Origin: a phage
DNA: 37,944 bases
Strand: one strand, 5' to 3'
Sequence record: PZ247578.1
The position numbers and the translations under genes were made by a program. How positions within the stretch are numbered: the stretch's first letter is position 1; each line of letters starts with the position of its first letter. Shown one piece after another: positions 19,827 to 22,117 of the stretch. The notes under the pieces were generated by a model. The model was not told the DNA's origin and did no database searches. It was given only the letters and a program-made list of their open reading frames with translations.

Positions 19827-19849
19827 CTAAACTATCACTATAGGGAGAC
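19827..19849 (+). promoter_or_regulatory. Strong phage RNAP promoter (CTAAACTATCACTATAGGGAGACC), phi10-like
   Basis: Best match to the full consensus including GGGAGA; upstream of the capsid gene. Confidence 0.9.
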
Positions 19850-19950: not shown

Positions 19951-21000
19951 ATGGCAAACGTTCCGGGTCAGAAAGTAGGTACAGACCAAGGCAAAGGCAA
20001 ATCTGGTTCCGACGCTCTGGCGTTGTTCCTGAAGGTATTTGCTGGTGAAGTCCTGACCGCATTCACTCGCCGCTCTGTAACTGCTGACAAGCATATTGTC
20101 CGTACAATTCAGAACGGTAAGTCTGCTCAGTTCCCGGTCATGGGTCGCACCTCTGGTGTGTATCTGGCTCCGGGTGAGCGACTGTCCGATAAGCGTAAAG
20201 GTATCAAACATACCGAGAAAGTGATTACCATTGATGGTCTGCTGACTGCCGATGTGATGATTTTCGACATTGAAGACGCGATGAACCACTATGACGTGGC
20301 TGGCGAGTACTCCAACCAGTTGGGCGAAGCTCTGGCTATCGCTGCCGATGGTGCGGTACTGGCTGAGATGGCTATTCTGTGTAACCTACCGGCTGCATCT
20401 GATGAAAACATCGCTGGTCTTGGCAAAGCGTCTGTGCTGGAAGTTGGTACTAAAGCAGACCTGAACACTCCGGCTAAGCTGGGTGAAGCAATCATCGGTC
20501 AACTGACCATTGCTCGTGCGAAGCTGACATCCAACTACGTTCCTGCTGGCGACCGTTACTTCTACACCACGCCGGACAACTACTCTGCAATCCTCGCGGC
20601 TCTGATGCCGAACGCTGCTAACTATGCTGCGCTGATTGACCCAGAGACTGGTAACATCCGTAACGTAATGGGCTTCGTGGTTGTTGAAGTTCCACACTTG
20701 ACTCAGGGTGGTGCTGGGGAAACTCGTGGTGCCGATGGTATCACTATTGCGACTGGTCAGAAGCACGCCTTCCCAGCTACTGCTACTGGTGATGTTAAAG
20801 TTGCTCTGGACAACGTTGTGGGCCTGTTCTCTCACCGTTCTGCTGTAGGTACTGTTAAGCTGCGTGACTTGGCGCTGGAACGTGACCGTGACGTCGATGC
20901 TCAGGGCGACCTGATTGTTGGTAAGTACGCTATGGGTCACGGTGGTCTGCGTCCAGAAGCAGCAGGCGCACTGGTTTTCACAGCGGCGTCAGCGGGTTAA
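19951..21000 (+). CDS. Major capsid protein 10A, 349 aa
   Basis: DALALFLKVFAGEVLTAF, KHTEKVITIDGLLTADV, LMPNAANYAALIDPE, KYAMGHGGLRPEAAG closely match recalled T7 gp10A. Confidence 0.97.
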   Translation: MANVPGQKVGTDQGKGKSGSDALALFLKVFAGEVLTAFTRRSVTADKHIVRTIQNGKSAQFPVMGRTSGVYLAPGERLSDKRKGIKHTEKVITIDGLLTADVMIFDIEDAMNHYDVAGEYSNQLGEALAIAADGAVLAEMAILCNLPAASDENIAGLGKASVLEVGTKADLNTPAKLGEAIIGQLTIARAKLTSNYVPAGDRYFYTTPDNYSAILAALMPNAANYAALIDPETGNIRNVMGFVVVEVPHLTQGGAGETRGADGITIATGQKHAFPATATGDVKVALDNVVGLFSHRSAVGTVKLRDLALERDRDVDAQGDLIVGKYAMGHGGLRPEAAGALVFTAASAG

Positions 21001-21263
21001 CGACCTTTAAGGCCCTCTCTACAGAGGGTCCTACCTTAGAGACGTATAGTTCTACGGTGGGAACCAGCCTGAAGGTTGACTTCCCTGAGCTTTCAGATGT
21101 GACCGATTGGTCGCTGCTTGAGGTGACTACGCCTGATGGTGTTAGCTACTCACGTAGAACCAACAGTCTCTACTTCAAGGCCACCTCTGGCGTGGAAGGT
21201 CTGGTGATTGTTGGGTATGACGGTACGCCTGTGCGTTCCTTCAACGTATCTTTCACAAACTAA
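19951..21263 (+). CDS. Minor capsid protein 10B, produced by a programmed -1 frameshift at GGTTTTC (20973..20979), with a C-terminal extension of about 94 aa
   Basis: The heptamer matches the T7 10A/10B shift site; the -1 frame is open from the heptamer to the stop at 21261..21263. Confidence 0.7.
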
Positions 21264-21268
21264 TTGAA

Positions 21269-21308
21269 ACCCCTTGGGTGCCTTCGGGTGCTTGAGGGGT
21301 TTTTTTGC
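21269..21308 (+). terminator. Phage late terminator (T7 Tphi-like): GC-rich hairpin with a UUCG loop plus a U7 tract
   Basis: AAACCCCTTGGGTGCCTTCGGGTGCTTGAGGGGTTTTTTTGC, in the Tphi position after gene 10. Confidence 0.85.
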
Positions 21309-21323
21309 TTAAGGAGTAAACCT

Positions 21324-21890
21324 ATGGCTCAATACATTCCACTGAATGCTAACGATGACTTAGACGCCATCAACGATATGTTAGCTGCTATCGGTGAACC
21401 AGCAGTCCTACAGCTTGACGAGGGGAACGCTGACGTATCAAACGCTCAACGTATCCTGCATCGTGTCAATCGTCAGGTCCAAGCTAAGGGATGGAACTTT
21501 AACATCAATGAAGCTGCTGTCCTGACACCTGATGTCCAAGACAACAGGATTCGATTCCTGCCGTCATACCTTCGTGTAATGACTGCCGGGGCCACCAGCT
21601 ACTACAGCAACATGGGTGGATACCTGTACGACCTGTCCACTCAGTCAACCACTTTCACCGACCCTATCACGGTAGAGCTTGTGGAGATGAAGCCATTCTC
21701 CGAGATGCCTGTGGTCTTCAGGGACTACATCGTCACTAAAGCTAGCCGTGAGTTCAACGCTAAGTTCTTCGGTAGCCCAGAGTCTGAACTGTACCTTCGT
21801 GAGCAGGAAGCAGAACTCTATCAGCAGGTTATGGAGTACGAGATGGACACTGGTCGCTACAACATGATGTCTGACATCGGGAGGGACTAA
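21324..21890 (+). CDS. Tail tubular protein A (gp11 homolog), 188 aa
   Basis: LNANDDLDAINDMLAAIGEP, NAQRILHRVNRQVQAKGWNFNI, FRDYIVTKASREFN match recalled T7 gp11; start at ATG 21324 (SD AAGGAG), not 21264. Confidence 0.92.
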   Translation: MAQYIPLNANDDLDAINDMLAAIGEPAVLQLDEGNADVSNAQRILHRVNRQVQAKGWNFNINEAAVLTPDVQDNRIRFLPSYLRVMTAGATSYYSNMGGYLYDLSTQSTTFTDPITVELVEMKPFSEMPVVFRDYIVTKASREFNAKFFGSPESELYLREQEAELYQQVMEYEMDTGRYNMMSDIGRD

Positions 21891-22117
21891 TGGCTAGTCA
21901 CAACCTGAAGATTCACCGCCAACACTTTGGTCCGGTACAGCTAGGTCTAAAGACAGCAGAGCTGAGACTTAACGACCGGGACTTTAAGGTTGGCGATTGG
22001 CTTATCCTGAATGAGTGGGACAACGGATACACTGGACAACAGGTAGCTCGTAAGGTTGTCCACATTGCTGACGTTGGTGACATCGCTGAAGGATACGTCC
22101 TAATGAGTATGATTTAA
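21890..22117 (+). CDS. Small hypothetical protein (75 aa), possibly ASCH/PUA-like (DUF3850-type), between the tail tubular A and B genes
   Basis: Start overlaps the gp11 stop (TAATG); the pattern HxLKIHRQHF...RLNDRDFKVGDWLILNEWD...YTG...V looks like small ASCH-like phage proteins; from memory only. Confidence 0.55.
   Translation: MASHNLKIHRQHFGPVQLGLKTAELRLNDRDFKVGDWLILNEWDNGYTGQQVARKVVHIADVGDIAEGYVLMSMI

Follow-up and report, generated by a model that had tools for sequence, protein, structure and literature searches.

The window (the whole stretch of phage DNA that was analysed, 37,944 nucleotides, record PZ247578.1) was a Kayfunavirus genome, K1F-like and belonging to the T7 family, and its segment 19800-21400 shared 99% identity with Escherichia phages vB_EcoP-U8, LM33_P1, and others. 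The locus began with a T7-type late promoter core, CACTATAGGGAGA (19836-19848, + strand), which was the sole match within the window and lay upstream of the capsid gene in the phi10 position, the same place as the annotated phi10 of T7, T3, and K11. Gene 10A (19951-21000, + strand), with an ATG at 19951 and a TAA at 20998-21000, defined the zero frame and encoded the major capsid protein of 349 aa. This protein matched the Pfam family Gp10A-like (E 1e-104), and its residues 1-344 aligned with PDB entry 9vvq (E 4e-214); the T7 capsid entry 2xvr was matched as well. Downstream of the capsid gene, a Tphi-type intrinsic terminator with a conserved AACCCCTTGGG arm was identified at 21266-21303 (+ strand), consisting of a 17-pair stem-loop and a subsequent T run. 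The locus was bounded by gene 11 (21324-21890, + strand), which encodes tail tubular protein A (Pfam Tube, E 4e-46) and carried an AAGGAG sequence 7 nt upstream of its ATG. A 75-aa ORF (21890-22117, + strand) was located between the tail tubular genes 11 and 12, with an ATG that overlapped the gene 11 stop codon (ATGA); it encoded a DUF3850/ASCH-domain protein (Pfam E 2e-19) that was also found in Kc166A, HC12, and EV136_1.

The slippery heptamer G GTT TTC was located at 20973-20979 (+ strand), in the register CT[G GTT TTC] ACA relative to 10A and six codons before the stop, where tRNA-Val in the P site and tRNA-Phe in the A site can re-pair in the -1 frame. The original prediction had placed this heptamer 19 nt before the 10A stop and had described a -1 frame that stays open for about 94 codons to 21263, just before a Tphi-like terminator. 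These positions were confirmed: 18 nt lie between the heptamer and the stop, and the TAA at 20998 begins 19 nt past the heptamer end. The -1 frame was open from 20925 to 21263, and re-reading of C20979 gave exactly 94 sense codons (HSGVSG...NVSFTN) followed by TAA at 21261-21263, with a gap of 2 nt between this stop and the terminator stem that begins at 21266. The -1-frame part of gene 10B occupied 20979-21263 (+ strand), and the full 10B, join(19951..20979, 20979..21263) on the + strand, would encode 437 aa. The predicted 10B sequence contained the junction GALVF/HSGVSG, with the peptide ...PEAAGALVFHSGVSGLTTFK, and its extension included HSGVSGLTTFK and ALSTEGPTLETYSSTVGTSLK. GGTTTTC occurred twice in the window, at 20973 and 1438; the second copy (1438-1444, + strand) was read as GGT TTT C within a 75-aa ORF (1408-1635), which is not the shift register, and was rejected as a slip site. 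Among shuffles of 20979-21263, 1.4% stayed open for 94 codons, and the length of the open frame was weak evidence by itself, the comparative evidence being decisive.

The arrangement corresponded closely to that of T7, in which the gene 10 shift site is G_GU U_UUC (PMC5009743) and the -1 frameshift between 10A and 10B is credited to Condron, Atkins and Gesteland (1991), as cited in PMC5009743 and PMC2579914. T7 and the window shared the heptamer, its register (GTG GTT TTC AAA in T7), and the -1 direction, and in both the heptamer occupied an equivalent position within the conserved ...GGLRPEAAGA(L/V)VF capsid C-terminus. In both, the extension ended a few nucleotides before the same Tphi (AACCCCTTGGG...GAGGGGTTTTTT), although the distance from the shift site to the terminator was about 290 nt in the window and roughly 215 nt in T7. 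The statement that T7 uses the same heptamer with a shorter extension also proved correct, as T7 10A has 345 aa and T7 10B, at 398 aa, is longer by 53 aa. On the other hand, the tails themselves differed. The T7 tail comprises 56 aa in the new frame, is rich in alanine and charged residues, and lacks a Pfam match, whereas the window extension comprises 94 aa and was predicted to form a beta sandwich; no sequence similarity was found between the two.

The locus was compared with 17 related loci, giving 18 sequences together with the window. These included nine from Kayfunavirus (Peacock, U8, NS1, IME278, Kc166A, HC12, EV136_1, Dev2, and K1F), CR8 from Caroctavirus, four from Przondovirus (KP32, K11, TH50, and RoS7a), T7, the genome MK290739, and one metagenome contig; the set thus covered Kayfunavirus, Caroctavirus, Przondovirus, Teseptimavirus, and two further contigs, or at least five genera. 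GTT TTC and the A that follows it were invariant in all 18 sequences, and the preceding base was G in 17 of them, whereas the Ala and Gly codons immediately 5' of the heptamer each appeared as three to four synonymous codons in the same sequences. The invariance of GTT TTC could partly reflect codon bias, both being preferred codons in highly expressed genes. The -1 frame was open from the heptamer in 17 of 17 relatives, including those with extensions at only 40-50% identity. Among eight Kayfunavirus sequences, pN/pS was 0.29 in the -1 frame compared with 1.43 and 2.02 for the two alternative frames, and the variable columns were distributed over -1-frame codon positions 1, 2, and 3 as 25, 16, and 52. 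The substitution pattern indicates that the -1 frame is under purifying selection that is specific to this frame. Furthermore, a tblastn search with the extension returned matches in 455 phage records, and in KP32-type phages the match began right at the shift site, with extension residue 1.

Structure prediction, which had been proposed as a check on the extension, yielded a disordered linker of approximately 20 residues followed by an Ig-like sandwich of 74 residues. In the AlphaFold2 model, built on a 14-sequence alignment, the mean pLDDT of the extension was 79.6. The linker, residues 1-20 (HSGVSGLTTFKALSTEGPTL; 20979-21038, + strand), had a pLDDT of about 50 and lacked secondary structure, consistent with predicted disorder, and it was also the most variable stretch in the alignment of the extension family. 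Residues 21-94 (21039-21260, + strand) were modelled as a seven-strand sandwich at pLDDT 85-90, and this predicted beta sandwich had Ig-like structural neighbours. As a prediction, the assignment at fold level to a generic Ig-like sandwich, preceded by a flexible linker, is reasonably secure. Among solved structures, the K1F-like entry 9vvq, the Przondovirus-like entry 7y23, and the T7 capsid entries cover the 10A part only, and none includes the extension.

Against PHROGs, the extension matched phrog_7473, a family of unknown function (E 6.7e-37), with residues 15-94 aligned to positions 2-82 of the 82-position profile. A Pfam search with the window extension and 12 family members gave no match above threshold, the best being Big_3 (E 0.016) in two members. 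In two very large protein searches, all homologues were short ORFs adjoining a T7-like capsid gene, and neither an in-frame capsid fusion nor an occurrence of the domain within another protein was found; so far, the phrog_7473 domain has been seen only behind the -1 frameshift in T7-like capsid genes. The motif NSLYFKA...(V/I)xYDG gave significant phmmer matches to secreted bacterial proteins with many ELWxYDG / NALYF repeats; some of these proteins contain T9SS sorting domains. Distant matches to large bacterial proteins were considered as adhesin repeats and rejected, since the similarity is at the motif level only and does not amount to homology. The bacterial proteins consist of ELWxYDG / NxLYF repeats, gave Pfam matches to DUF6756 and PQQ_2/BamB-like propellers, and matched the extension only at the NSLYFKA...YDG motif, in many short stretches. 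This similarity seems to reflect convergent evolution of a beta-strand motif and can easily mislead searches for homologues.

Capsid extensions with Ig-like folds form a described group. The class of Ig-like domains on bacteriophages is reportedly due to Fraser and colleagues. A review describes this class (PMC5009743), and the same source states that the T3 capsid extension produced by a -1 shift is Ig-like, whereas that of T7 is not. T3 and the window both have an Ig-like C-terminal domain of about 80 residues reached by a -1 shift near the end of gene 10, both the fold and the shift being predicted in the case of the window. However, T3 slips at C CCA AAG (a lysyl site), in contrast to the G GTT TTC of the window, and Pfam assigns the extension of T3 to Big_2 (E 4e-10) but places the window domain in none of its families. 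A common origin with the Big_2 extension of T3 was rejected, as neither BLASTP nor Pfam nor hhalign (probability 0.6%) detected any homology. The window domain thus has the predicted fold of the Big_2/I-set/FN3 frameshift class without membership in those Pfam families.

The 10A body of HC12 was 100% identical to that of the window, whereas its extension was 75.5% identical; in EV136_1 the corresponding values were 95.6% and 49.5%. These values point either to exchange of the extension by recombination or to its divergence at a rate well above that of the shell. In K1F, the type species of the genus, the 10A body was 96.2% identical to that of the window, and the heptamer, the upstream sequence, and the terminator were identical, but a short T7-like tail of 48 codons in the new frame (...EETLTPQQKAARTRAAN...) stood in place of the Ig-like module. 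With a near-identical 10A, the same heptamer and terminator, and another tail, K1F therefore argues that the segment has been swapped as a cassette. The break points fell at the invariant heptamer on one side and the conserved Tphi on the other, suggesting that the segment from the slip site to Tphi is a swappable cassette within the genus. The window extension is a non-homologous module that stands in place of the short T7/K1F-type tail. Two records of the same domain family with the same slip site already carry an annotated joined 10B coding sequence, namely Escherichia phage Peacock (MK903279, QEG09703.1), with an extension 95.7% identical to that of the window, and Citrobacter phage CR8 (HG818824, CDM21625.1), with an extension at 48% identity. 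A note in the CR8 record states that the 10B product matches mass spectrometry, with extension or junction peptides unspecified, and the CR8 genome announcement is silent on both the capsid and mass spectrometry. In the literature searched, no junction-peptide data were found for this extension family.

A classical stimulatory hairpin or pseudoknot was not found 5-9 nt past the heptamer, and the fold of the 103 nt from the heptamer onward was not significant relative to shuffles (z-score -1.09). A local hairpin, GCCCTCT-CTAC-AGAGGGT (21012-21029, + strand), was identified as a candidate element 32 nt 3' of the heptamer, starting about 10 nt after the 10A stop; at 32 nt it is too far for the classical spacer of a -1 stimulator. 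It was kept in seven Kayfunavirus sequences through wobble changes only. Przondoviruses had a longer hairpin at a similar place, with two compensatory pairs among the four sequences compared; in Raoultella phage RoS7a, two pairs of this hairpin were changed on both sides with pairing retained. In each lineage examined, a hairpin was present about 20-35 nt 3' of the slip site. The Tphi terminator, AACCCCTTGGG...GAGGGGTTTTTT, was conserved 4-13 nt past the 10B stop in 17 of 17 loci, T7 included. For T7, frameshifting has been reported to involve a CCCC of the terminator, located more than 200 nt 3' of the shift site (PMC5009743), and by analogy the CCCC of the window terminator (21270-21273) is the best candidate for a stimulator.

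The interpretation of the locus as a programmed -1 frameshift was upheld, as the T7 arrangement was matched, the features were conserved in relatives, and the new frame was under purifying selection. It is very probable that a T7-type -1 slip at the heptamer makes a 437-aa 10B that carries a linker and an Ig-like domain. On the late gene 10 mRNA, most ribosomes would stop at the TAA at 20998 and release 10A, the shell protein of 349 aa. In the remaining minority, tRNA-Val and tRNA-Phe would slip in tandem from GUU UUC to GGU UUU at 20973-20979, and these ribosomes would read 94 more codons and stop at 21261, before Tphi, to give the 437-aa 10B. The shift rate of T7 gene 10 is about 10%. By analogy with T7, the shift presumably occurs in the window phage as well. 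10B would co-assemble with 10A into the shell because it retains the whole capsid fold, and its linker and 74-residue Ig-like sandwich would stand out from the outer surface of the capsid, decorating it at low copy number. The exposure of the C-terminal domain on this surface is likewise argued from analogy, and the domain may have a weak affinity for carbohydrates or surfaces, in keeping with proposals made for other Ig-like domains of phages. In K1F, g10b::gfp, in which GFP is fused to the C-terminus of 10B, gave stable fluorescent virions (PMC6277420), so that a domain fused to this terminus is tolerated in the virion. Together with the predicted linker and Ig-like sandwich, this is in line with the suggestion of the original prediction that the extra C-terminal portion may be a capsid decoration or display domain, whereas its picture of a T7 tail with additional residues did not hold. 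A more specific view, in which phrog_7473 represents an unclassified Ig-like capsid-display family, namely a fast-evolving, cassette-exchanged, low-copy adhesion module (e.g., for glycan or mucus) whose dose is set by frameshift efficiency, is put forward only tentatively, as a possibility somewhat less probable than its opposite.

Many GenBank records, including those of U8, NS1, Dev2 (gp10.1), HC12, Kc166A, and KP32, annotate the downstream ORF as a separate gene, and the ORF listing of the window contained a 68-aa ORF that begins with GTG. On this view, the tail would be a small gene in its own right ('gp10.1'), with translation beginning at an internal start such as the GTG at 21057 (68 aa) or through re-initiation once ribosomes have reached the stop of 10A, and its product would be separate from the capsid protein. 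However, the start codon was not conserved, with at least five different annotated starts in relatives and products ranging from 54 to 87 aa. The first possible start in the window was the GTG at 21057, which lacked a Shine-Dalgarno sequence and would cut off predicted strand 1 (extension residues 21-26). In all lineages, both the sequence homology and the open -1 frame reached upstream as far as the heptamer, and the extension frame was always -1 relative to 10A and always overlapped the 10A end. An independent gene is rated as very improbable. A different origin of the fused product is also conceivable, given that any -1 event within 20925-20997 would yield it: the shift could take place elsewhere in the 25-codon overlap (20925-21000), either as a P-site slip of tRNA-Gly on GGU while the slow stop codon TAA occupies the A site (GCG GGT TAA) or as RNA polymerase slippage on the T run. 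P-site slippage adjoining a stop is a known mechanism, and GCGGGTTAA was conserved within the Kayfunavirus subgroup. On the other hand, GTTTTCA was invariant but the sequence of the stop region was not, being different in the lineages of CR8, KP32, and MK290739, and the overlap contained no other runs or X XXY YYZ motifs. Furthermore, a run of four T residues is too short for transcriptional slippage to be efficient. The proven sites are the identical heptamer in T7 (PMC5009743) and TTTTCA in the T7-like phage Kvp1, in which the -1 shift was proven by mass spectrometry and leads to a different tail (PMC2579914). A shift at another position in the overlap is consequently rated as very improbable, marginally below an independent gene.

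The -1 frame might also lack any functional recoding and be a product of chance or a decaying remnant, with 10A as the sole product. The fraction of shuffles that stay open by chance (about 1.4%) and the failure to find a strong local stimulator would fit such a view. However, it conflicts with the frame-specific purifying selection indicated above and the invariant slip site, with conservation over at least five genera and 455 phage records, and with the confident prediction of a domain fold, and it is accordingly regarded as extremely unlikely. The observation behind the preferred reading, a very probable T7-type slip at 20973-20979, is real, and the joined 10B is already known, being annotated in Peacock and CR8. 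The additions made here are modest: an Ig-like fold, as predicted, that is unclassified in Pfam, a third unrelated tail type, and fast modular evolution.

The current understanding of the frameshift mechanism is unchanged by these results. T7-family phages have at least three unrelated tails behind the capsid frameshift, namely the T7/K1F tail, the T3 Big_2 domain, and the phrog_7473 Ig-like domain, and these three types fit the view that the slip site serves as a docking point for exchangeable low-copy surface modules. For engineering, the natural linker and domain mark a display position that is tolerated in K1F-like therapeutic phages. The value of recognising the T7-type shift lies mainly in annotation, where it leads to the correct 437-aa product. 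Most Kayfunavirus and Przondovirus GenBank records split the feature into a capsid gene and a 'hypothetical protein', or mislabel 10A as a minor capsid protein, and many such phages are therapy candidates against E. coli, Salmonella, and Klebsiella. In U8 and IME278, 10A was labelled 'minor capsid protein'. Several records present the out-of-frame tail as a separate entity, named either 'minor capsid protein' or 'hypothetical protein' and given varying starts, and the tail was unannotated in K11 and EV136_1.
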